DNA of 24,000 bases from Sphingobacteriales bacterium 46-32 (GTDB lineage Bacteria > Bacteroidota > Bacteroidia > Chitinophagales > Chitinophagaceae), in the NCBI GenBank assembly GCA_001898485.1, contig MKTY01000018.1, positions 209,421 through 233,420 of the forward strand. Reading direction: 5' to 3'. The position numbers and the translations under genes were made by a program. Below, in pieces: positions 2,429-14,337 of the stretch. The notes under the pieces were generated by a model. That model was given only the letters and a program-made list of their open reading frames with translations, had not been told where the DNA came from and ran no database searches. The stretch's first letter is position 1, and the number at the start of each line of letters is the position of its first letter.

Positions 2429-3913
2429 CTATATTGCTGACCGTGAAAACTGGGGCAGCTCAAACCAGAATGCAGCACCATTGCCGGGAGTACTTGTCAC
2501 CTGTATGGATGACTGATGCAGCTCCAGAATTTTTTTGACGATAGCCAGACCAATACCCATTCCCTTTTTGGGTAATTCATCGTTATGCAATTGTTTGTAC
2601 CGTTCAAAAATATACGCCTGATCTTCGGGCGCAATACCGATACCGGTATCTGTTACCTGTACCTGTATGCCAGCGTGTAAAGCCTTAAGCCGGATAGTAA
2701 TGCTGCCTCCGTCGGGGGTAAACTTGAAAGCATTGTCGATGAGATTTTGCAATACCCGTTCAGTAAGTGCAATATCCGCAAATACCGGAGGCAGGCCGTC
2801 TGTGCACTCGAGGGTAAGTGTGATGTTGCGTTCCCGTGCTTTGAGCTGGTACGCAGAGAGTATATCTGCCACCAGCTCATTGAGCAGAAATTGTTCTTTT
2901 TCGGGGCTTACCTGATTGGCTTCCAGTTTGGCATATTGAAACAGCTGCTCTACGAGTACGGACAATTTTTTCGAACTCTCCTGTACTATTGTTAAATATT
3001 TTGTTTTTTCGGCATCGCTCAGGTTATCTTTTTTTATAAGCAGGGTTTCAGAGTAGCCCTGTATAATAGAGAGGGGAGTGCGCAGGTCGTGTGAGATATT
3101 GGCAATGAGTTCCTGTCGGAATTTATCAGTGGCACTGATCCTGTCAAAATTATCGACAATCACATCGGCCATTTCGTTGAAGGTAGAGGTAAGCATACCG
3201 AGGTTGCCACGGGCATGCCCTTCTATACGTGCGCCATAGTCGCCTTCTTTGAATTTGCGTACCACGCCGGCAATCTGGCAGATACTGTCTGTGATGAGAA
3301 AGAAGGTAATGATACCTACAATGAGCGCAATCAGCAATACGGAAAGAAAAAGGTATTTGCCCAGGCGAAATGAAAGATCGCTATTGAGGGTATTCAGGAT
3401 TTCTTTCTGCTTTTCGCTGGATAATACAGCATAGACGTACCCCATTAATACGCCATTTTCATAGAGCGGGGCTGCAGAGAAAATACTGGCTTCACCGGGC
3501 TGTTTGGGGTTGTCGCCCATAGGCTTTTCGCCGTCTTTTACAGCAAGCCATTCTTTTACCCGGCTGATGTTGACCTGGTGCTGCTGCACGGATTTGTCAG
3601 GTACTACAAAGTCGGTGATCCTGCCCGTAGTATCCAGCAGATAGACCTCCACACTCGGATTGGCTACCATCATGGAGTGTATGATATCGTGTGTGACGGT
3701 TGTATCGGGCTTCCCATTCTTCAGCGGATGAGTAACATTGGCCAGGTGGGAGGCCACATTGCCATACAGCTCCTGGTGTGCCCTGGTATAATAGGAGCGT
3801 GACAGTTTTGAGCCAATTACCATATACACCACTCCCAGTATGACCAGCAATACAGAAAATACAGCAGTTATTTTCCAAAACAACAGGTTGCCTCTTATAG
3901 TTTTTACAGACAT
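2429..3913 (-). CDS. Sensor histidine kinase (two TM segments, ~150-aa periplasmic sensor, HAMP, HisKA, HATPase_c)
   Basis: TM1 is LLFWKITAVFSVLLVILGVVYMVIG and TM2 is YLFLSVLLIALIVGIITFFLI. A HAMP-like region follows (VVRKFKEGDYGARIE...TSTFNEMADVI). Kinase boxes are present: H-box ELIANISHDLRTPLSII, N-box LQNLIDNAFKFT, G1 VTDTGIGI, G2 KGMGIGLAIV. It starts 12 nt after the response-regulator stop. Confidence 0.93.
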   Translation of the reverse strand: MSVKTIRGNLLFWKITAVFSVLLVILGVVYMVIGSKLSRSYYTRAHQELYGNVASHLANVTHPLKNGKPDTTVTHDIIHSMMVANPSVEVYLLDTTGRITDFVVPDKSVQQHQVNISRVKEWLAVKDGEKPMGDNPKQPGEASIFSAAPLYENGVLMGYVYAVLSSEKQKEILNTLNSDLSFRLGKYLFLSVLLIALIVGIITFFLITDSICQIAGVVRKFKEGDYGARIEGHARGNLGMLTSTFNEMADVIVDNFDRISATDKFRQELIANISHDLRTPLSIIQGYSETLLIKKDNLSDAEKTKYLTIVQESSKKLSVLVEQLFQYAKLEANQVSPEKEQFLLNELVADILSAYQLKARERNITLTLECTDGLPPVFADIALTERVLQNLIDNAFKFTPDGGSITIRLKALHAGIQVQVTDTGIGIAPEDQAYIFERYKQLHNDELPKKGMGIGLAIVKKILELHQSSIQVTSTPGNGAAFWFELPQFSRSAI

Positions 3914-3925
3914 ATATACGTTGCT

Positions 3926-4630
3926 TTATAATTCTTCATTGAAACGGTATCCGACTCCCCAGGTGGTCAGAATGAAACGGGGTTTTGAAATGTCTTCTTC
4001 AATTTTTCCGCGCAAGCGGTTTATATGCGAGTTGACGGTATGTTCATATCCCTCGAAGTCGTATCCCCAAACCAGGTTGAGCAGGCGTTTTCGGCTATAG
4101 CTTTTACCGGGGTTGGAAGCCAGTAGCGTGATCAGGTCAAACTCTTTTGGAGACAAATCCACCCTGTTTTCATGGAGCATAACCTTTCGTTTGTCTGTAT
4201 CAATCACCAGGCCCGAAAACCGGATGATTGAAGAAGCCGGTAAAACCTCCTGCGCAGATCCATAATCTTCTTTTCGCCGAAAGATCACTTTTACGCGGGC
4301 TATAAATTCTCTTACACTGAATGGTTTGGTGAGATAATCATCGGCTCCTGTTTCCAGTCCCAGTACTTTATCAATCTCTTCCGATTTGGCAGACAGTATC
4401 AGGATAGGGGTATGCCGGTCTGTTTGCCGGATGCGCCGGCATACATCCATTCCATTCATACCGGGCAGCATAAGGTCCAGGATCACCAGGTCAAATGATT
4501 GTTCCAGTACCGCGGTCAGCCCCTCCTGGCCATTCGCTACGGCTACAACTTCGCAGCCCAGGTCGTGCAAATGGATACTAAGCAGTTCCACAATATTGGC
4601 ATCGTCTTCCAGTAGCAATACCCTGTTCAT
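3926..4630 (-). CDS. OmpR/PhoB-family response regulator (receiver plus winged-helix DNA-binding domain)
   Basis: Receiver motifs are present: RVLLLEDD, DLVILDLMLPGMNG, PILILSAK. The C-terminal winged helix reads LSPKEFDLITLLASNPGKSYSRKRLLNLVWG...VNSHINRLRGKI...LTTWGVGYRF. I chose the start at the internal ATG (CAT 4628-4630, MNRVLLLEDD) instead of the track start at 4660. Confidence 0.92.
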   Translation of the reverse strand: MNRVLLLEDDANIVELLSIHLHDLGCEVVAVANGQEGLTAVLEQSFDLVILDLMLPGMNGMDVCRRIRQTDRHTPILILSAKSEEIDKVLGLETGADDYLTKPFSVREFIARVKVIFRRKEDYGSAQEVLPASSIIRFSGLVIDTDKRKVMLHENRVDLSPKEFDLITLLASNPGKSYSRKRLLNLVWGYDFEGYEHTVNSHINRLRGKIEEDISKPRFILTTWGVGYRFNEEL

Positions 4631-4695
4631 AGATTCCTGATTGAGATAAATGTTTTTCAAAATTCAGTAAAAAAAACCATCCGCTCTGCGCTGTG

Positions 4696-4715
4696 ATACT
4701 TTTGTTATACTTCTG
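4696..4715 (+). promoter_or_regulatory. Candidate Bacteroidota -7 box (TACTTTTG, 4697-4704) inside a tandem direct repeat ATACTTTTG / ATACTTCTG spaced 11 bp apart
   Basis: Exact match to the Bacteroidetes sigma-A -7 consensus TAnnTTTG, about 65 nt upstream of the spondin-like gene ATG at 4770. The 9-mers at 4696-4704 and 4707-4715 are identical at 8 of 9 positions. They start one helical turn apart, which is the usual geometry for OmpR/PhoB-family binding sites. The site sits in the divergent regulator/spondin intergenic region. Confidence 0.35.
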
Positions 4716-4769
4716 CGACCCCTTTGGGATATCGTCTCCGTTTCTTTGACCTGTCAAAAAAACAAGAAG

Positions 4770-6065
4770 ATGAAACAGAACAATTTAAGAGCTTTAACTG
4801 CACTGTCGCTCAGCCTTTTTTTCGCATCCTGTCAGAAAGATGATGCGGTAGTGCCCCAATCCGGTACCATTAGTATCGAAAATGTACTGGATAGTAAACC
4901 ACTGGTTCAATCGGGTACTTTTAAAGGCACAGGCACCCCGCCGGTAATTTTTCCCGGCCAGTCGGTTTCCTTCACTATTTCTGCCGCAAAAAACCAGCGC
5001 CTCACGTTTGCAACGATGTATGGATGGAGTAATGACCTGTTTTTTGCGCCTGCCAATCCCGGCATTCAGCTATATGAAAATGACGGAACTCCTATCGTCG
5101 GCGATGTTTCGGCCGCGGTAAAATTATGGGATAATGGTACCCGCGTCAATCAGGCGCCGGGTATGAGCGTGACTCATCCAGGCACATCGGAAGCTACCGT
5201 TAAAAACATAAAAGAGGTGACGGGGATGGATGATTATGGTAATACCTACCTGCCAGCCTCCCAGCTTATGAAGGTATCGCTGGCTTATAATGGCAATTCC
5301 ATGTTTACCGTGACTATTATGAATAACTCGGGTGGTACCGCGAATGAGACACCTTTTAGCCCCGGTGTATGGGCTATATCCTATGTGGCAGGAGGCAATC
5401 TGCTGTTGCCTGAGCCAATCTATTCATCGGGCAAGCCAACGGCCAATGGTCTTACAGCTATAGCAGAAGCGGGTGACAATGCTGCGATGAGTGCTTACCT
5501 GACCGAAGAGACCGGCATTTTTACCCCCCTGTCTCCTGTGCTGGTAGTGGTGTACAGGGGCAGTGTCAATCCTTTTTATAAAACTGGAGAGAACGATCGT
5601 GGTGAAGGATTAAAAGAACTGGCACAAAAAGGCAATGCAGATATACTCGCTGCTGCGCTGAAAACGAAGTCAGGGGTTAAAAATGTATATGTATTAAAAG
5701 AATCTGTCAGTACGGTCTTGCTTCCGCGTATCAACGGAGCCGATGGGGGTAAGGTTTCGCAATTGCTTAGCATCGTTCCCGGCGACAGAATAGCCATTGC
5801 CACGATGTACGGTTTTTCGAACGACTGGTTCTTTGCTACTACCGGCAATGATATAGACGCTACACAAAAAGGAGATGTATCAGCCGCTATTGGATTGTTT
5901 GATGACGGCACTGCTATTAATCAGTTCCCCGGTGCAGGCATTACCCAGTTTAACCTGGCCGGTACGCCACTCAATGAAAGTAAGGCGATCGAAGCTGTGC
6001 CCAATCCCAATGCCTTTACCAGCTTGCCGGCATTGACCAATATTATTAAGGTGACGCTGCAATAA
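4770..6065 (+). CDS. Lipoprotein with two tandem spondin_N-like domains
   Basis: Lipobox LSLFFAS-C, followed by QKDD. There is an internal duplication: ATMYGWSNDLFFAP...GDVSAAVKLWDNGTRVNQAPG versus ATMYGFSNDWFFAT...GDVSAAIGLFDDGTAINQFPG. With FSPGVWA between them, these resemble bacterial spondin_N (F-spondin N-terminal) domain proteins. The start is set at ATG 4770; the track's TTG at 4746 adds 8 residues before the signal peptide. Confidence 0.8.
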   Translation: MKQNNLRALTALSLSLFFASCQKDDAVVPQSGTISIENVLDSKPLVQSGTFKGTGTPPVIFPGQSVSFTISAAKNQRLTFATMYGWSNDLFFAPANPGIQLYENDGTPIVGDVSAAVKLWDNGTRVNQAPGMSVTHPGTSEATVKNIKEVTGMDDYGNTYLPASQLMKVSLAYNGNSMFTVTIMNNSGGTANETPFSPGVWAISYVAGGNLLLPEPIYSSGKPTANGLTAIAEAGDNAAMSAYLTEETGIFTPLSPVLVVVYRGSVNPFYKTGENDRGEGLKELAQKGNADILAAALKTKSGVKNVYVLKESVSTVLLPRINGADGGKVSQLLSIVPGDRIAIATMYGFSNDWFFATTGNDIDATQKGDVSAAIGLFDDGTAINQFPGAGITQFNLAGTPLNESKAIEAVPNPNAFTSLPALTNIIKVTLQ

Positions 6066-6074
6066 AGAAATAAA

Positions 6075-6128
6075 CATGCCCGGAGCGACAGGGAGGGTTG
6101 GTGGTTTAAACTCCGGGTATGTTTTCTC
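6075..6128 (+). terminator. Hairpin plus U-tract terminator candidate after the spondin-like gene
   Basis: catgcccggag (6075-6085) pairs with ctccgggtatg (6111-6121) as an 11-bp stem containing one G-U pair. It is followed by ttttctc (6122-6128). The 25-nt G-rich loop is unusually large, which weakens the call. Confidence 0.45.
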
Positions 6129-6235
6129 ACTTAGCGAATACAAATCCGGCTATACAACTGCATTTATTGGCCGATGGGCCTGCAGAAAGAGACGCAGCAG
6201 GTATTCCGTAGTTTATTTAAATAAAACAGTAAAAG

Positions 6236-6703
6236 ATGAAAAGTATTATCTCTACACTGGCACTGCTGGTTTTGTTAAGCTGTCAGCTGTTTGGCCAGTC
6301 GGCAGATGTGCGCAGGAAGCAATTTAATCTCAGCAAATCAGGTCTGGCCATAGATGGTTACGATCCTGTTGCCTACTTTATAAGCAATAAAGCCATTGAG
6401 GGCCGCAAAGATATCAGCACGGCTTATGATGGCGTAACCTATCGGTTTGCCAATACGCAGAACAGAGACGCCTTTGCCGCCAATCCTGCAAAATATGAAC
6501 CGCAGTATGGCGGCTGGTGCGCCTATGCGATGGGCGCCAAAGGAGAGAAGGTGGAGGTTGATCCCGAAACGTTCAAGATCGTTAATGGTAAACTATACCT
6601 TTTTTATAACAGTTTTTTTAATAACACACTCAAAAGCTGGAATAAAGACGAAAGCCGCCTGAAGTCTAATGCAGATCAGAGTTGGACCAAATTTATCCGG
6701 TAA
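6236..6703 (+). CDS. YHS domain-containing (seleno)protein family member (Cys form), probable lipoprotein
   Basis: Signal/lipobox MKSIISTLALLVLLS-C. Family motifs are GYDPVAYF, YDGVTYRFAN..NRDAFAANPAKYEPQYGGWCAYAM and NGKLYLFYN. Confidence 0.85.
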   Translation: MKSIISTLALLVLLSCQLFGQSADVRRKQFNLSKSGLAIDGYDPVAYFISNKAIEGRKDISTAYDGVTYRFANTQNRDAFAANPAKYEPQYGGWCAYAMGAKGEKVEVDPETFKIVNGKLYLFYNSFFNNTLKSWNKDESRLKSNADQSWTKFIR

Positions 6704-6745
6704 TACAGAAGCATTAATTAGTCATCAATAAATGGAAACACAACA

Positions 6746-7189
6746 ATGAGAAATGTATTTTTTGCAGCAGCGCTTATATTTTTTGCATCATGCAGCACAA
6801 CGGCCCAGAAACAGGAAGTTTTTACTGTAGATGGAAAGGCGATAAGAGGGTATGATCCGGTAGCTTTTTTCAAAGAGTCGAAACCTGTAAAGGGTGTTGA
6901 CAGTCTTTCGTATGTGTATAAAGAGGTGCTATGGCTGTTTTCGTCAGCAGAAAACCTGGCAGCATTCAAAGCCGACCCCGATAAATATACCCCCCAGTAT
7001 GGAGGCTACTGTGCTTATGGCACTGCAGATGGCCATAAGGCACCTACGCAGCCCGAGACCTGGACGATTGTAAATGATAAACTCTATTTCAATTATAACC
7101 TGAAAGTAAAGCAATCGTGGGATAAAAATCGTGCAGCCCTGATAGAGAAAGCAGACGAACAATGGCCGGCTGTAAAACAACAGAAATAA
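6746..7189 (+). CDS. YHS domain-containing (seleno)protein family member (Cys form), probable lipoprotein; tandem paralog
   Basis: Lipobox ALIFFAS-C. Motifs are GYDPVAFF, LWLFSSAENLAAFKADPDKYTPQYGGYCAYG and NDKLYFNYN. It has the same architecture as the upstream gene, 42 nt away. Confidence 0.85.
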   Translation: MRNVFFAAALIFFASCSTTAQKQEVFTVDGKAIRGYDPVAFFKESKPVKGVDSLSYVYKEVLWLFSSAENLAAFKADPDKYTPQYGGYCAYGTADGHKAPTQPETWTIVNDKLYFNYNLKVKQSWDKNRAALIEKADEQWPAVKQQK

Positions 7190-7226
7190 TATTCATAATC
7201 TCCATTTTACCTTATTAAACCGAAAT

Positions 7227-7634
7227 ATGAGTGCCAGATCAAAAACTGTCATTGCCTGGGTATGCCGGATCATAGCAGCGGCAATTATGTTGCAGACACT
7301 GTTTTTCAAATTTACGGCAGCGCCGGAGTCGGTCTATATTTTTTCGGCACTTGGCATGGAACCCTGGGGCAGAATAGGTACGGGTATACTGGAGTTGACC
7401 GCTTCGGTGCTTATACTACTGCCTGCTGCTACCGTTTATGGGGCGGTACTTGGTTTGGGGTTAATGGGAGGCGCACTTTTTTTTCACTTTACACGGCTGG
7501 GTATAGTAGTACAGGATGACTCAGGACAACTGTTTATATACGCCTTACTGGTGTTTATCAGTTGCCTGGTATTGCTTATGCTGTATAAAGAACAAGCTAT
7601 CCGGTTGGTAACGATTTTTAAACGGAGCAAATAA
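7227..7634 (+). CDS. DoxX family integral membrane protein
   Basis: 135 aa with four hydrophobic helices (IIAAAIMLQTLFFKF, GILELTASVLILLP, VYGAVLGLGLMGGALFFH, IYALLVFISCLVLLML). Size and pattern are typical of DoxX-like proteins. Confidence 0.8.
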   Translation: MSARSKTVIAWVCRIIAAAIMLQTLFFKFTAAPESVYIFSALGMEPWGRIGTGILELTASVLILLPAATVYGAVLGLGLMGGALFFHFTRLGIVVQDDSGQLFIYALLVFISCLVLLMLYKEQAIRLVTIFKRSK

Positions 7635-8128
7635 TGAGTCAGCAAATAGGTCAACCTGCCACAGCATTGATATACCAGCTGATCACATTACTGGAAAATC
7701 TATCTGATGAGCAGTATGTGAGAAAAATTTCATTATTGTCGAAAGCATCTCTTGGGCAGCATACCCGTCATATTATCGAGTTTTTCCTGGAGCTGGAAAA
7801 AGGGTATAATACTGGTATTGTCAATTATGATAGCAGGGAGCGCGATCGTGTTATAGAAACGAAGCGCCATTTTGCGATAGAAACTTTGCTGTATATTAAT
7901 GCCGGTATTGAAAAGCCCGACAAACTTATGGCGCTGAAGACTGATTATGAATCAGAAAACAGCATCTCTACCAGCTATCATCGTGAGCTGCTTTATGCGA
8001 TGGAGCATACTGTTCATCATATGGCCCTGTTAAGGATAGGAGTAGGGATCATATCAAATGTAGTATTGCCAGAAAACTTTGGTGTGGCGGCTTCTACTAT
8101 CAAATACCGGAATCAATGTGCACAGTAA
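7634..8128 (+). CDS. DinB-like (DinB_2/YfiT-type four-helix bundle) protein
   Basis: 164 aa with a candidate His triad: GQHTRHIIEFF near the N-terminus and MEHTVHHMALL near the C-terminus. The start ATG overlaps the DoxX stop (TAATG at 7632-7636). Confidence 0.75.
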   Translation: MSQQIGQPATALIYQLITLLENLSDEQYVRKISLLSKASLGQHTRHIIEFFLELEKGYNTGIVNYDSRERDRVIETKRHFAIETLLYINAGIEKPDKLMALKTDYESENSISTSYHRELLYAMEHTVHHMALLRIGVGIISNVVLPENFGVAASTIKYRNQCAQ

Positions 8129-9906
8129 CGTATATACCAACATCTAAGGGGGCCTATCTCACATCCAACAGAGATGAAAGTACACAGCGTGGCAGGGCCC
8201 TGCCACCGGCACAGTATGATTGCAATGGTGATAAACTCATTTATCCGAAGGATCCGGATGCGAACGGTAGCTGGATTGCACTGAAGCAAAGCGGCGATGC
8301 TGCGGTATTGCTCAACGGAGCCTTTATCAGGCATGAGCGGCAACAGGTATACCGCAAAAGCCGTGGATTGATTTTTCTGGAAATAATGGCCGGCAGCAAT
8401 CCCCCCGATCATTTTTTACAAATAGTGTTGGATGGAATCGAGCCCTTTACACTGATACTTTTTAATAGCAAACAACTCTGGGAATGCCGCTGGGATGGGT
8501 ACAAAAAGTATAAGGTTTTGCTGAATGCATCAAGGCCTTATATCTGGTCTTCTGCCACGCTCTATCACAGGGATGTGACGGAGGAAAGAAAACGCTGGTT
8601 TCTGCAATGGCTTTCTTCTGCCCGTGAGTTGAATACCGCAAAGATCATGACGTTTCACCAGTCTGCGGGCAAAGGTGATTTATACAATGGATTAGTGATA
8701 AACAGAGCGAATAAAATGCGTACAGTGAGTATTACTTCCGTTAAGATAAATGCAGATAAACCTGCTATGAGTTACCAGGATCTGGAAGAAGGAACCAACA
8801 CGGTAAAAATATTTGACCGGACTTCGGCTGGCAAAGACAGTCGCTTTTTAACAAATGCAAACTGGTTTATCCGCAAACTGAAAATCCGGATCACGAATTG
8901 GGAATACTGGCCCTCGCAGCTGGTATATGGGCCTCTTTATTTGTACTGGCTCTGGTTAAGCCTGAAAGCAAGGTCTTTCTTTTTCTTTAGTGCGGCTAAC
9001 CCCGGCCTCCAGTATGCGGGTTTTATACACGAGAAAAAAAGTGATATCTACCCTTTAATTCCCCAGCAGTATTATCCGCGAACAAAGCTTTTCAAAACAG
9101 GCGAACTCCCCGTTGTAGTGATGGAGGAATTAAAAAGAGCGAAGCTTGTTTTTCCCTTAATAGCCAAGCCGGATATTGGGGAAAAGGGAAAACAGGTAAA
9201 GCTGCTGCATACGGAAAATGAACTGTTTCAGTATATCGGTCGCAGTAAGGTCGATTTTTTGGTACAGGAACATATCGGTTATGAGCAGGAGGCAGGTATT
9301 TTTTATTATCGTATACCCGGTGAAGCAAGCGGACATATTTCCGGTATCGTGGGAAAAGAATTTTTGTCAGTCACTGGCGATGGTAAGTCCAGTATCCGTG
9401 ATTTACTGAAAAGAGAAGATCGTTTCCTGCTGCAACTGCCGGCGCTTCAGTATACATATGGCTGTTTACTGGACAAGGTACTGGCAGATGGCGTAAAGCA
9501 TATACTCGTTCCTTATGGTAACCATAGCCGGGGAGCAAAGTTTGTTGACCTGAAACATAAAATTTCGGATGCCCTTACTGATACGATTGATGCCGTTTGC
9601 CAGCAGATTCCGGGCTTCTATTATGGCCGGCTAGATATACGGTTTAAATCCTGGGAAGAACTGGCCGAAGGCAAAAACTTTAGTATTATCGAATTGAATG
9701 GTGCAGGCAGCGAGCCAACTCATATGTACGATCCCGGGCATTCGCTTTTTTATGCATGGGGAGAGATCTGCCGGCACTGGCGGCTTCTTTACCGGATCAG
9801 TCAGTTGAATGTACGCGATAAAAAACTTCCCCTGATGACTACCGGTGAGGGGATAAAGATGTACAGGGACCATCGCCAGTATTTAAAGCAGATCGTAAAA
9901 GTATAA
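8116..9906 (+). CDS. Fusion protein: N-terminal NRDE/TANGO2-like domain, hydrophobic linker, C-terminal ATP-grasp ligase domain
   Basis: 596-aa uninterrupted ORF. The N-terminus MCTVTYIPTSKGAYLTSNRDE carries the Met-Cys start and the NRDE motif that names the family. The linker is WEYWPSQLVYGPLYLYWLWLSLKARSFFFF. ATP-grasp motifs appear in the canonical order: FPLIAKPDIGEKGKQVKLL, FLVQEHI, GRLDIRF, SIIELNGAGSEP. The ORF overlaps the DinB stop by 13 nt. Confidence 0.88.
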   Translation: MCTVTYIPTSKGAYLTSNRDESTQRGRALPPAQYDCNGDKLIYPKDPDANGSWIALKQSGDAAVLLNGAFIRHERQQVYRKSRGLIFLEIMAGSNPPDHFLQIVLDGIEPFTLILFNSKQLWECRWDGYKKYKVLLNASRPYIWSSATLYHRDVTEERKRWFLQWLSSARELNTAKIMTFHQSAGKGDLYNGLVINRANKMRTVSITSVKINADKPAMSYQDLEEGTNTVKIFDRTSAGKDSRFLTNANWFIRKLKIRITNWEYWPSQLVYGPLYLYWLWLSLKARSFFFFSAANPGLQYAGFIHEKKSDIYPLIPQQYYPRTKLFKTGELPVVVMEELKRAKLVFPLIAKPDIGEKGKQVKLLHTENELFQYIGRSKVDFLVQEHIGYEQEAGIFYYRIPGEASGHISGIVGKEFLSVTGDGKSSIRDLLKREDRFLLQLPALQYTYGCLLDKVLADGVKHILVPYGNHSRGAKFVDLKHKISDALTDTIDAVCQQIPGFYYGRLDIRFKSWEELAEGKNFSIIELNGAGSEPTHMYDPGHSLFYAWGEICRHWRLLYRISQLNVRDKKLPLMTTGEGIKMYRDHRQYLKQIVKV

Positions 9907-9939
9907 ATATATCAGGCCGCTGGAAGCGGCCTGATATAT
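9907..9939. terminator. Bidirectional hairpin terminator between convergent genes
   Basis: Perfect 14-bp stem: atatatcaggccgc (9907-9920) pairs with gcggcctgatatat (9926-9939), with the 5-nt loop tggaa. It begins immediately after the TAA at 9904-9906 and lies 36 nt from the stop of the convergent TPR gene. The flanks are A/T-rich on both sides. Confidence 0.8.
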
Positions 9940-9974
9940 TTATACCTGTATGTGAAGTTAAAATTTATTCCAGC

Positions 9975-12102: not shown

Positions 12103-14337
12103 TTATCGCAGTACATAGGTGAGCTGCACAATATTCCACAGCATATAATTAAATGAACCCTGTCCGTTGCAACGGCTGCATTTGATCTGCTCTTCGGTGG
12201 TATAGCCCTTTGTGGTGGTAGTTTTGGTAGTGGTGGTTTCTTTTGACCCGCGCACTTCTTTGTAGCTGTTGGTTGTTGGATCCCAAACTCTTTCCCAGGT
12301 TGGTGTGGTATTGCTCGAAGTCTCGGTCTTTGAAGTTCCATTTACCTTTCTGCTTATTGTAGTATAGCCGCTTCCTTCGCAATCGGGGCACCTGTGCTGA
12401 TCTGTAGTTTTGAAATCAATTTTATAACCTCCCAGGGCAATGGCGTCAAACGATATTTTCGCGCCATTAATTTCACCGAAGATCTTGTTCCCTTTTAATT
12501 CTATTTTCTCAAAGACGGGATAAAGCAAGACCTTATCATCGGTGGTTTTTAACCCCCATCCGGCTGGTCTGTTTCTGAACTGATGTTTGTATAGCACTGC
12601 CTCTCTGCCGGGCAATTGCATAGTACCTCCGTTTGCACCCTCCAGCCAGTTATGGGGTTTACCGGTAGCAAGATCAAGGTAGGTATAAAAATTATCGGCC
12701 CGGTTTTTTGCGGTAACCATGTTTTCTTTGCTTATACTATACATGGTATCGTAACTACACGAAACAATAAAGTTATTTTCGCTGTCCAGTATACCTGTTT
12801 TATTGTTGATGACAATACGCCTGTAAGTTCCTTCTTCATCCATAAAAAAGCAGGGTGTTTCCTTTCCCGATCTGTCCAGCAGCGCATATCGGCCGTTATC
12901 TGATAGCTGTACAACAGCCCTTCCATTTTTAAATATCCCGGCTTTTTTATATAAAGTACTAAAGCCATTACCTGTAGAATCTATGTAAATATATTTTTCA
13001 TACCTGTCGCCGACCACCGCCAGACCTTCGGAGAAATCGCTGGCAGAGGCATACATGGGAGAGATAATTTCTCTACCGGTTTTGTCGATGTACCCATACA
13101 GGTTATTGATTTTTATCCTGGCCCGTCCATTGCGGAAACCATAGGCTTCGTCGTATTTAAATGGGATAACAATTTTGCCTGCCTGATCAATAAAACCATT
13201 TTTGTTTTTGAATCTTACCTGTGCCAGTCCGTCCGAAAAATCGGAGGCGTCTTCGTAAATGGCTGAAACGATTGTACTGCCTGTGCGGCTAATGAATCCG
13301 TAGGCACCACTTTGTTTTATACGGGCCCGGCCGTTTGAGAATGGGTACGCTTCTTCAAAGGTTGCAGCAATAACCTCTTTTCCGGTTTTATCTATAAATC
13401 CCCAGGTGCCGCCACTGCTGCTACCGGGGTAGGCAACCATGGGCGTTTGTACAGCTGCCAGGCCTTCTGTAAAATTGCGGGCCATTGTGTATTTGGCCGG
13501 GATCACTATCTGTCCGTTTGCATCCCTGAATCCATAGTTATAGAAATCCTTGTAGAGCGTATAATTTACCTGTTCCGGTTGAAGTATAACCTGGCGGCCT
13601 GTTTTATCGACATAGAACTCTGCTTCATCTGATGCTACTTTGGCCCGTCCATCTTTGAAATTTTCGGCTGAGGTATACAGCGCCGAAATGATCTCTTTTC
13701 CGGTCTTATCAATATAGCCATAATGCAAGCCGGACAATACCCTGGCCATATCATCCGAAAAATCGCTGATATAGCCGTATTCCGCAGACTTTTTGTTGCC
13801 TGACTGATCAATTAGAAAATAACTGTCTTTGAGCGCTACAATAGCGACGCCCTGGTCAAAATCCCTGGCCTCTTTGTATATTACCGGTATAACTTCTTTC
13901 CCTGTCTTATCTATGAATCCCCATTTTGCATCTTTCCCTTTGCCTGCCGAAATCCGGTACAGGCCATCTGCATATTTTCCTATATAATTATATTTAACGG
14001 GAGTTATCTCTTTTCCGGATTTGTCCAGTAGTCCCCATTTGCCATTTATTTCCACCTGGGCAATATCTCCTGAAAAATTATCCGCTCCATCATATTTTAA
14101 GGGTATAACCAGTTTTCCCGTTTTGTCAATAAATCCCCTTTTGTTGTTGAGAATAACAAGGGCCATGTCGCCTTCGAAAAGAAAAGCCATATCGTACTGT
14201 GGCTCAACGATGATCTGGTCGTTGGCATCACGGTAGCCCCATTTGCCGTTCACAACAAACGGTTTAAGCTGCTGGCTGGCTGCACTTAGTATGCCGGCAA
14301 AAAAAATACAGACTGTTATAAGTGTTGATTTAATCAT
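12103..14337 (-). CDS. Secreted WG (KWG)-repeat protein with a C-terminal pair of DnaJ-type CxxCxGxG motifs
   Basis: Signal peptide MIKSTLITVCIFFAGILSAASQ. It has roughly 15 repeats of the WG motif (KWGFIDKTGKEVIP..Y..A..F..G.A.V type). The C-terminus carries CPDCEGSG (from nt 12390) and CSRCNGQG (12157-12180), separated by a Thr/Ser/Lys-rich spacer. Confidence 0.9.
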   Translation of the reverse strand: MIKSTLITVCIFFAGILSAASQQLKPFVVNGKWGYRDANDQIIVEPQYDMAFLFEGDMALVILNNKRGFIDKTGKLVIPLKYDGADNFSGDIAQVEINGKWGLLDKSGKEITPVKYNYIGKYADGLYRISAGKGKDAKWGFIDKTGKEVIPVIYKEARDFDQGVAIVALKDSYFLIDQSGNKKSAEYGYISDFSDDMARVLSGLHYGYIDKTGKEIISALYTSAENFKDGRAKVASDEAEFYVDKTGRQVILQPEQVNYTLYKDFYNYGFRDANGQIVIPAKYTMARNFTEGLAAVQTPMVAYPGSSSGGTWGFIDKTGKEVIAATFEEAYPFSNGRARIKQSGAYGFISRTGSTIVSAIYEDASDFSDGLAQVRFKNKNGFIDQAGKIVIPFKYDEAYGFRNGRARIKINNLYGYIDKTGREIISPMYASASDFSEGLAVVGDRYEKYIYIDSTGNGFSTLYKKAGIFKNGRAVVQLSDNGRYALLDRSGKETPCFFMDEEGTYRRIVINNKTGILDSENNFIVSCSYDTMYSISKENMVTAKNRADNFYTYLDLATGKPHNWLEGANGGTMQLPGREAVLYKHQFRNRPAGWGLKTTDDKVLLYPVFEKIELKGNKIFGEINGAKISFDAIALGGYKIDFKTTDQHRCPDCEGSGYTTISRKVNGTSKTETSSNTTPTWERVWDPTTNSYKEVRGSKETTTTKTTTTKGYTTEEQIKCSRCNGQGSFNYMLWNIVQLTYVLR

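Follow-up and report, generated by a model that had tools for sequence, protein, structure and literature searches.

Glutathionylspermidine (and trypanothione) synthetase/amidase carries a Cys amidase at its N-terminus and an ATP-grasp synthetase at its C-terminus on one polypeptide. In the E. coli enzyme (Gss/GspSA), the amidase Cys is oxidized under oxidative stress, and the product accumulates as a result. Ergothioneine biosynthesis employs a ligase (EgtA), a DinB-domain metalloenzyme (EgtB), and an N-terminal-Cys N-terminal nucleophile (Ntn) amidohydrolase (EgtC) that takes off the handle which the ligase had attached. Mycothiol and bacillithiol detoxification (MST/BstA, Mca/Bca, Cys ligase, and mercapturate export) likewise relies on a metal-dependent DinB-fold transferase, an amidase, a ligase, and an exporter, and a DoxX-family membrane protein serves in a thiol and oxidative-stress context in the mycobacterial DoxX-SseA-SodA complex. 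Here, we analyzed a 24,000-nucleotide (nt) stretch of the genome of Sphingobacteriales bacterium 46-32 (contig MKTY01000018.1, positions 209,421 to 233,420), hereafter the window, in which five consecutive genes at 6236–9906 encode two YHS proteins (YHS1 and YHS2), a DoxX_2 membrane protein, a divergent DinB-fold protein (P4), and a fusion of an NRDE/TANGO2-type hydrolase to an ATP-grasp ligase. These five genes very probably make up the 3′ portion of a single module conserved in Bacteroidota. Its core is P4, a predicted metalloprotein, coupled to the ATP-grasp ligase, with the NRDE hydrolase almost always encoded between them.

The module resembles each of these systems in part. GspSA has the same order of Cys amidase and ATP-grasp synthetase, but its amidase is a CHAP domain rather than the Ntn/TANGO2 fold encoded here, and it has no DinB, DoxX, YHS, or LysE partners. 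No GspS structure is among the 50 Foldseek matches listed for the NRDE::ligase protein, and the likeness is best taken as an analogy of logic, not homology. The ergothioneine pathway shares with the module a ligase, a DinB metalloenzyme, and an N-terminal-Cys Ntn amidohydrolase. However, EgtB joins its DinB domain to an FGE-sulfatase domain that is absent from the module, EgtA is a GCS2 ligase, and EgtC has a class-II amidotransferase fold, whereas the module has an ATP-grasp and a TANGO2-like fold. Neither a methyltransferase nor a pyridoxal phosphate (PLP) lyase occurs among the conserved neighbors of the module. In mycothiol and bacillithiol metabolism, unlike in the module, the amidases Mca/Bca are LmbE-family deacetylases and MshC/BshC fall outside the ATP-grasp enzymes, and the genes of the cycle do not form one overlapping operon. 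P4 also represents a separate DinB subfamily, with no NCBIfam or Pfam match of its own. The membrane protein of the module is DoxX_2 (PF13564) and not DoxX proper as in the mycobacterial complex. The first-pass annotation had drawn an analogy to that complex, which finds no support. The conserved neighbors include neither rhodanese nor superoxide dismutase genes. The partner folds that define the GspSA, Mca/MST, Egt, and DoxX-SseA-SodA systems are either different or missing here, which places the module outside all four. Each of its proteins belongs to a known superfamily, and the combination of families appears unprecedented. As had been proposed, no described system of this composition was found in the literature on NRDE/TANGO2, ATP-grasp, DinB, DoxX, YHS, and amidoligase combinations. 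The module genes are also not mentioned in a 2026 Bacteroidota fitness paper (supplementary files aside), and the PADLOC models of antiphage defense matched none of six proteins of the locus.

The list of open reading frames (ORFs) reproduces all five + strand genes exactly at the coordinates reported earlier, and all five family assignments (YHS, YHS, DoxX, DinB, and NRDE::ATP-grasp) hold. YHS1 (6236–6703) is an exported member of the YHS-like (seleno)protein family with one conserved Cys (GGWC), and YHS2 (6746–7189) is its paralogue (GGYC). The DoxX_2 membrane protein (7227–7634), assigned by PF13564 and hydropathy, is followed by P4 (7634–8128), assigned as a divergent DinB-fold protein by alignment, an AlphaFold2 (AF2) model, and Foldseek. 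The last gene encodes the NRDE/TANGO2 Cys-Ntn hydrolase domain (residues 1–235, 8116–8820; PF05742, invariant columns, and Foldseek), two aromatic helices (residues 241–293, WEYWP...FFFF, 8836–8994; AF2 helices at 241–260 and 267–285), and the ATP-grasp amide ligase domain (8995–9906; fold and invariant residues). As previously noted, the junctions are gaps of 42 nt and 37 nt followed by overlaps of 1 nt and 13 nt. The 13-nt overlap between P4 and NRDE, ATGTGCACAGTAA (8116–8128, + strand), codes twice, once for the end of P4 (...CAQ and its stop) and once for the start of the NRDE domain (MCTV).

Both flanking hairpins were also present. Downstream, a perfect 21-bp stem at 9901–9945, longer than the 14 bp first reported, separates the ligase gene from a convergent TPR gene and is predicted to act as a bidirectional terminator (RNAfold dG −33.2 kcal/mol, z = −8.8; 0 of 200 shuffles fold equally well). 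The upstream hairpin on the + strand (6072–6124), between a spondin gene and YHS1, is weaker, with dG −23 kcal/mol and z = −2.5. Its arms at 6072–6085 and 6111–6124 form 14 bp with 93% complementarity around a 25-nt loop, making it a possible terminator or attenuator. The 42-nt and 37-nt internal spacers fold into no structure (dG 0), and the only strong terminator in the unit lies after the ligase. The same gene order and the 13-nt overlap were seen again in 80 genome loci and 80 metagenome loci, which places the five-gene arrangement far beyond chance.

Conservation was assessed in two samples. The genome sample came from a ligase-anchored tblastn scan with one genome per species, in which counts were made on the best 80 loci. 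The metagenome sample was independent and anchored on P4, with denominators of 63, 37, or 29 depending on the feature counted. At least 597 species encode the ligase. The best 80 loci span Chitinophagaceae, Sphingobacteriaceae, Cytophagales (Dyadobacter, Dawidia, and Parachryseolinea), and Flavobacteriales (Flavobacterium and Maribacter). The order YHS-DoxX-DinB-NRDE-ATP-grasp is thus kept well beyond close relatives, in Chitinophagales, Sphingobacteriales, Cytophagales, and Flavobacteriales, and the first-pass annotation had named confinement of this order to close relatives as grounds for abandoning the proposal. Of the 80 genome loci, 78 have a P4 homologue upstream of the ligase gene, and in nearly all loci P4 stands immediately ahead of NRDE. 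The ATGTGCACAGTAA overlap is unchanged in 54, and most of the others differ from it by a single base. In the metagenome sample, NRDE comes next after P4 in 61/63 loci, and in the remaining two the ATP-grasp gene does. Upstream of the core, DoxX is accompanied by one or more YHS genes in 57/80 genome and 24/37 metagenome loci, the second YHS copy (YHS2) occurs in about 25 of the 80, and the gap from DoxX to P4 is no longer than 60 nt in 47/59 loci. This synteny, together with the conserved overlap, bears out the earlier view of the five genes as one conserved, translationally coupled unit. As a separate matter, some of the module-bearing records of metagenome-assembled genomes (L035; P0026/P0270) are titled "Brevundimonas vancanneytii" or "Citrobacter freundii" and are probably mislabelled or contaminated bins.

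The NRDE::ATP-grasp fusion, part of the operon as first described, is not a defining trait of the module. Across the genome loci, the two parts are fused in 22, split in 55, and reduced to the ligase, with NRDE missing, in 3, so that the fusion is a lineage-specific feature. In Dawidia and Parachryseolinea, the ligase itself starts with MRTV at the 13-nt overlap (L067 7016–8107; L071 7031–8125). This start indicates that MRTV is a remnant of MCTV, with the whole NRDE domain deleted in-frame from a fused ancestor. With NRDE deleted in these genera, P4 and the ligase make up the minimal core. In split loci, the junction between NRDE and ligase falls about 700–740 nt past the NRDE start (L011–L077). 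A programmed in-frame stop between the two was considered, as 53 of the 55 split pairs in the ligase-anchored sample share the same frame, with gaps of 0–105 nt that are all multiples of three. In the P4-anchored metagenome sample, the frames are mixed (frame 2, n = 28; frame 1, n = 17; frame 0, n = 4), and a full-length tblastn query favors in-frame loci. For these reasons, the in-frame stop was rejected as a ranking artefact of the ligase-anchored sample, whose last three of 80 ranked loci are out-of-frame or ligase-only cases.

Genes around the module also recur. A LysE-type exporter is encoded directly 3′ of the ligase in 38/74 genome and 22/29 metagenome loci. Recurrent accessory neighbors are Crp/Fnr, extracytoplasmic function (ECF) sigma/anti-sigma, DM13, YceI, MsrB, and alpha/beta hydrolase genes, of which MsrB, YceI, DM13, Crp/Fnr, and ECF sigma are redox or envelope-stress types. 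YceI or DM13 genes are sometimes inserted between DoxX and P4. No Crp, DM13, or YceI homologues were found elsewhere in the window. In Panacibacter ginsenosidivorans, a 249-aa protein with no Pfam match (L161 6410–7159) is encoded between DoxX and DM13-YceI-P4, and in 9 loci the corresponding position is taken by related outer-membrane-barrel-like ORFs (cluster C24).

P4 of the window had no Pfam or NCBIfam match at E ≤ 0.01, although its homologues carry the database name "DinB family protein". Among 32 homologues, 15 match DinB_2 (PF12867; best E 6.8e-6) and 8 match DinB (PF05163). Sequence searches of P4 and the NRDE domain against the PDB returned nothing meaningful, the latter giving no pairwise match to the human TANGO2 chain, so the structural relatives of both were found by fold comparison. 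The AF2 model of P4 has a predicted local distance difference test (pLDDT) score of 89. Its top nine PDB matches in Foldseek are chains of 2f22, 2qe9, 3gor, 3dka, 3qth, and 6iz2, all DinB/YfiT-type (probability 0.98–1.00; template modeling (TM) score 0.47–0.68), and it also matches mycothiol S-transferase 8f5v and YfiT 1rxq. Seven residues (H43, R45, H46, E49, H125, H128, and H129) are invariant in 32 sequences. H43 and H46 lie on helix 2, and H125-x3-H129, together with H128, lies on the last long helix. The model and the alignment thus point to P4 as a divergent DinB-fold protein with a predicted metal-binding H...HxxxH triad. Its tail, FGVAxSTxKYR, is conserved and flexible and is modelled at low confidence, and its C-terminal residue varies among Q, R, Y, A, and E. 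It is a large subfamily. At E ≤ 1e-10, it counts 3185 representatives at 50% identity, and the best 150 listed all have lengths of about 160–218 aa.

The NRDE domain scores 37.5 bits against PF05742 (cutoff 22.6) over residues 15–138, and its homologues contain PF05742 under the NCBI name "NRDE family protein". M1, C2, N18, R19, D20, and E21 are invariant in 23 sequences. In human TANGO2, Cys2 and Asn25/Arg26/Asp27 have been proposed as catalytic residues (PMC13044924), and Cys2 and N18-R19-D20 of the NRDE domain correspond to them. The model matches human TANGO2 (9bwa/8sv7) with E 1.8e-10 and a target-normalised TM of 0.65. Further matches are isopenicillin-N acyltransferase 2x1d and bile-salt hydrolase 8blt. 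These matches place the predicted structure in the alpha-beta-beta-alpha Ntn-hydrolase fold. Human TANGO2 shares with the NRDE domain PF05742, Cys2, the N-R-D-E motif, and this fold. The NRDE domain is shorter (about 235 residues vs 276 in human TANGO2). Unlike human TANGO2, it is either joined to an ATP-grasp ligase in one polypeptide or encoded next to one, and it is coupled to a DinB protein.

Between the two enzyme domains, the linker contains the invariant residues E263, Y264, W265, W278, W280, F290, and F291. Wherever the NRDE and ligase genes are split, the aromatic helices of this linker form the N-terminus of the ligase. They had earlier been described as a hydrophobic segment, but their Kyte-Doolittle hydropathy over 19 residues (KD-19) is always below 1.3, under the transmembrane level, and they form no classical transmembrane helix. 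Within the ligase domain, K351, Q384, E392, R505, D507, E526, and N528 are invariant, as are the nucleotide/Mg motifs K351-P352-D353..G355..G358, R505-x-D507, and E526-x-N528, whose ATP and Mg2+ roles we take from analogy to Ddl/RimK. The ligase falls under the cutoff of the RimK models (PF08443, 16.2 vs 21 bits; TIGR00768, 16.4 vs 143.4). Its profile gave weak PDB matches (E 0.009–0.03) to RimK-domain ATP-grasp, cyanophycin synthetase 2 (7ta5), and GshAB, and Foldseek matched its model to GshAB 3ln6, cyanophycin synthetases 7ta5, 7wac, and 7lg5, and D-Ala-D-Ala ligases (E 3e-9 to 1e-6). By predicted structure and profile, the domain is an ATP-grasp enzyme nearest to GshAB and the G domain of cyanophycin synthetase, both of which form peptide bonds.

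YHS1 and YHS2 match NF041384, "YHS domain-containing (seleno)protein", at 143 and 154 bits against a cutoff of 70 (E 3.9e-42 and 1.5e-45). They fall under the threshold of the Pfam YHS family PF04945 (25.6 and 25.1 bits vs 30.3), and each mature protein has a single Cys, within the conserved GG[WY]C motif. With one conserved Cys, no multi-Cys metal site, and the PF04945 threshold missed, their earlier description as metal-binding YHS/TRASH proteins was dropped, and the residue is more plausibly a redox-active Cys/Sec than part of a metal site. Selenocysteine forms at the module loci were rejected, as the codon in GG[WY]C is TGT or TGC in all 115 copies and never TGA. The two proteins had also been described as exported lipoproteins. 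Among 105 YHS homologues, 102 have type-I signal peptides ending ...A|Q and only 3 have a lipobox-like motif. The signal peptides of the window proteins align to FG|Q (YHS1) and TA|Q (YHS2), and the Cys that they contain is not conserved among homologues. Lipoprotein status is thus unlikely, and YHS1 and YHS2 look like type-I-signal periplasmic proteins. Across the window (6236–6300 and 6746–6815) and the 105 homologues, these signal peptides end in A|Q or G|Q, which leaves Gln as the mature N-terminus and fits the Bacteroidetes "Q-rule" for signal peptidase I substrates. The third gene product matches DoxX_2 (PF13564) at 28.6 bits (cutoff 26.3), falls under the cutoff of DoxX proper (19.7 vs 23.6 bits), and has four hydrophobic segments by hydropathy. 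Two DoxX homologues picked independently from the DoxX search were both located inside the same module.

Together, a Cys-Ntn amidohydrolase and an ATP-grasp ligase are most economically read as making or recycling an amide-linked small molecule, and we give about even weight to small-molecule amide synthesis and hydrolysis as the function of the module. The ATP-grasp enzyme would form an amide bond within a small metabolite of the amino-acid type, one that possibly bears a thiol, and the N-terminal-Cys NRDE hydrolase would cleave or transfer the same type of bond. The two would make up a synthetase/amidase pair, closest in logic to GspSA, and oxidation of the nucleophilic Cys2 could set the balance between them. 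With a metal held by its His residues, P4 may transfer the metabolite or conjugate it, like the bacillithiol and mycothiol S-transferases, and the product or conjugate would be exported via LysE where that gene is present. Periplasmic YHS (with Cys here and Sec in other family members) and DoxX could then tie the metabolite to periplasmic thiol/quinone redox chemistry. This reading as a whole, with a synthetase/amidase pair, a DinB-type transferase, an exported amide-linked metabolite, and periplasmic redox coupling, is put forward tentatively, at slightly less than even confidence. Bacteroidota are predicted or reported to use bacillithiol derivatives (PMC6282198). A thiol as the metabolite of this module is possible, though we lean against it. 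The most specific version, in which a TANGO2-type hydrolase is the amidase half of a redox-switched cycle acting with a DinB transferase on a LysE-exported (thiol) metabolite used by YHS/DoxX, seems unlikely.

Several observations weigh against this proposal. Every chemical step in it derives from superfamily membership. P4 lacks a Pfam match of its own, and its Foldseek support is modest (E 3.7e-4; TM about 0.6). NRDE has been lost in some loci that keep P4 and the ligase, so a strict synthetase/amidase cycle is not essential. The core lacks nearby YHS/DoxX genes in 13/80 genome and 11/37 metagenome loci, and the periplasmic half is therefore not obligatory. The conserved neighbors include no gene for cysteine or thiol biosynthesis, and no LysE homologue is present in the window. 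Lastly, a 2026 structure paper still describes human TANGO2 as lacking a known substrate, and the crystallographers favor fatty-acid derivatives (PMC13044924).

The loci whose core has no reachable YHS/DoxX could instead reflect two independent modules that happen to be adjacent, a periplasmic YHS-DoxX (with or without YceI and DM13) redox unit and a cytoplasmic DinB-NRDE-ligase(-LysE) unit whose function is unrelated. Consistent with this, 9/59 loci have an extra 0.9–1.7 kb of genes between DoxX and P4, and YHS is on the opposite strand in some Ferruginibacter-type loci. However, the two halves stand together on the same strand in about 65–70% of loci across four orders, DoxX and P4 are as tightly spaced as described above and overlap by 1 nt in the window, and both independently chosen DoxX homologues fall in the module. 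Moreover, the inserted genes are again periplasmic redox types and leave the order intact. We consider this arrangement improbable, if the least so of the alternatives. A membrane-lipid or N-acyl-amide system is a little less probable. Fatty-acyl amide cleavage or transfer is known for acid ceramidase, NAAA, and bile-salt hydrolase. The TANGO2-like hydrolase would likewise act on a fatty-acyl amide, and a membrane-held ATP-grasp enzyme would build an N-acyl amino acid or lipid head group. The structural neighbors of NRDE do act on hydrophobic acyl amides, fatty-acid derivatives have been proposed as human TANGO2 substrates (PMC13044924), conserved aromatic WEYWP...FFFF helices precede the ligase, and the module includes an integral membrane protein, DoxX. 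Those helices, however, are more conserved and less hydrophobic than a simple anchor would be. Amino acids or peptides are what the nearest ATP-grasp relatives ligate, and the conserved neighbors include no acyltransferase or fatty-acid genes. LysE-family exporters, as is generally known, typically carry small amino-acid-like solutes.

The invariant pairing of P4 with the ligase, the weak RimK and TTL(L) similarities of the ligase, and the conserved P4 tail FGVAxSTxKYR, which has low model confidence, would also suit a protein-modifying pair. Here, a RimK/TTL-like ligase would add amino acids to a protein, possibly to the P4 tail itself, and NRDE would remove them. This is quite improbable, since the C-terminal residue of P4 is variable, conservation of its ...CAQ end is accounted for by the MCTV overlap, the full DinB metal triad makes P4 look like an enzyme, and the LysE exporter points to a small product. 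Least probable of all, and by our estimate very improbable, is a glutamine-dependent amidoligase in which the N-terminal-Cys Ntn domain feeds ammonia to the ATP-grasp domain for amidation of a carboxylate. An N-terminal-Cys Ntn domain fused ahead of an ATP-dependent synthetase recalls the familiar asparagine synthetase B, and Cys2 is invariant. Yet fold comparison of the Ntn domain puts TANGO2, isopenicillin-N acyltransferase, and bile-salt hydrolase first, not class-II amidotransferases, and the two domains are separate genes in 55/80 loci, with NRDE dispensable in some.

As for its extent, the five genes stand as one unit as first proposed, but the five-gene boundary probably does not, and the unit would be larger, including the upstream spondin gene. 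This gene (4746–6065, + strand) encodes a spondin-domain protein (NF038123, 215.7 bits vs cutoff 40), and its likely true start is the ATG at 4770 (MKQNN...FFASC), which gives a lipoprotein-type signal. The signal ends ...FFASC followed by QKDD (4770–4840), resembling the Bacteroidota lipoprotein surface-export signal, and the protein may be surface-exposed. The spondin gene adjoins the module in 7/80 genome loci as a lineage-specific first gene, and in Dyadobacter a 4-nt overlap joins its stop to the start of YHS1. Divergent from it, on the − strand, are an OmpR/PhoB-type response regulator (Response_reg and Trans_reg_C; 3926–4660) and a sensor histidine kinase (HisKA and HATPase_c by Pfam; 2429–3913), the probable regulator in this lineage. 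Kinase orthologues (E 1e-210 to 1e-261) hold the same position in Chitinophaga arvensicola (L001) and Dyadobacter (L016, L026, L027, and L036), and these five loci repeat the divergent regulator/spondin layout of the window. A heavy-metal identity for the two-component system was rejected, as it has no NCBIfam equivalog at cutoff and CopR/CopS-type models are not its best matches.

The intergenic region between the response regulator and spondin genes contains a conserved promoter/operator element (4690–4713, + strand), a candidate operator. It includes the 20-mer GCTGTGATACTTTTGTTATA (4690–4709), which is identical in the window, in Chitinophaga arvensicola (L001 ~2669–2690), and in four Dyadobacter loci (L016 ~3756–3775). 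The element contains a direct repeat, TGTGATACTTT/TGTTATACTTC, at 11-nt spacing, and a Bacteroidota −7 box, TACTTTTG, at 4697–4704. From these features and this identity across loci, the GCTGTGATACTTTTGTTATA region is likely a response-regulator operator plus promoter. No other TAnnTTTG occurs on the + strand from 4705 to 9906, and a separate Bacteroidota-type promoter just upstream of YHS1 was accordingly rejected. Since the only + strand −7 box lies upstream of the spondin gene and inside the conserved operator, the transcription unit probably starts at the spondin gene under the divergent two-component system. Transcription in this genome would then begin at the spondin-gene promoter, driven by the OmpR-type system, with the 6072–6124 hairpin as a possible attenuator or partial terminator within the unit. 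The whole kinase-regulator-spondin-YHS-YHS-DoxX-DinB-NRDE::ligase block (2429–9906) is common to Chitinophagaceae and Dyadobacter (Cytophagales), a distribution that suggests that the complete ~7.5-kb unit may have moved horizontally between orders. Beyond the TPR gene and unrelated to the module, the − strand at 12103–14337 encodes a 744-aa protein composed almost entirely of WG beta repeats (PF14903, 10 stretches, E 6e-114).

TANGO2 deficiency is a human metabolic disease. In Bacteroidota, a bacterial relative of TANGO2 is locked to an ATP-grasp ligase and a DinB protein through a phylum-wide start/stop overlap and gene fusion. The module, whose carriers include culturable genera (Flavobacterium, Pedobacter, and Chitinophaga), is therefore a tractable handle on the bond cleaved by the TANGO2 family, and if the proposed reading is true, it reveals native enzymatic partners of that family. 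Even if its role is routine housekeeping, annotation is gained for five "hypothetical/DUF-like" families. Present in at least about 600 soil and freshwater Bacteroidota species, the module may mark an unrecognised small-molecule (possibly thiol) pathway, which would link the cytoplasm to periplasmic Cys/quinone redox proteins.

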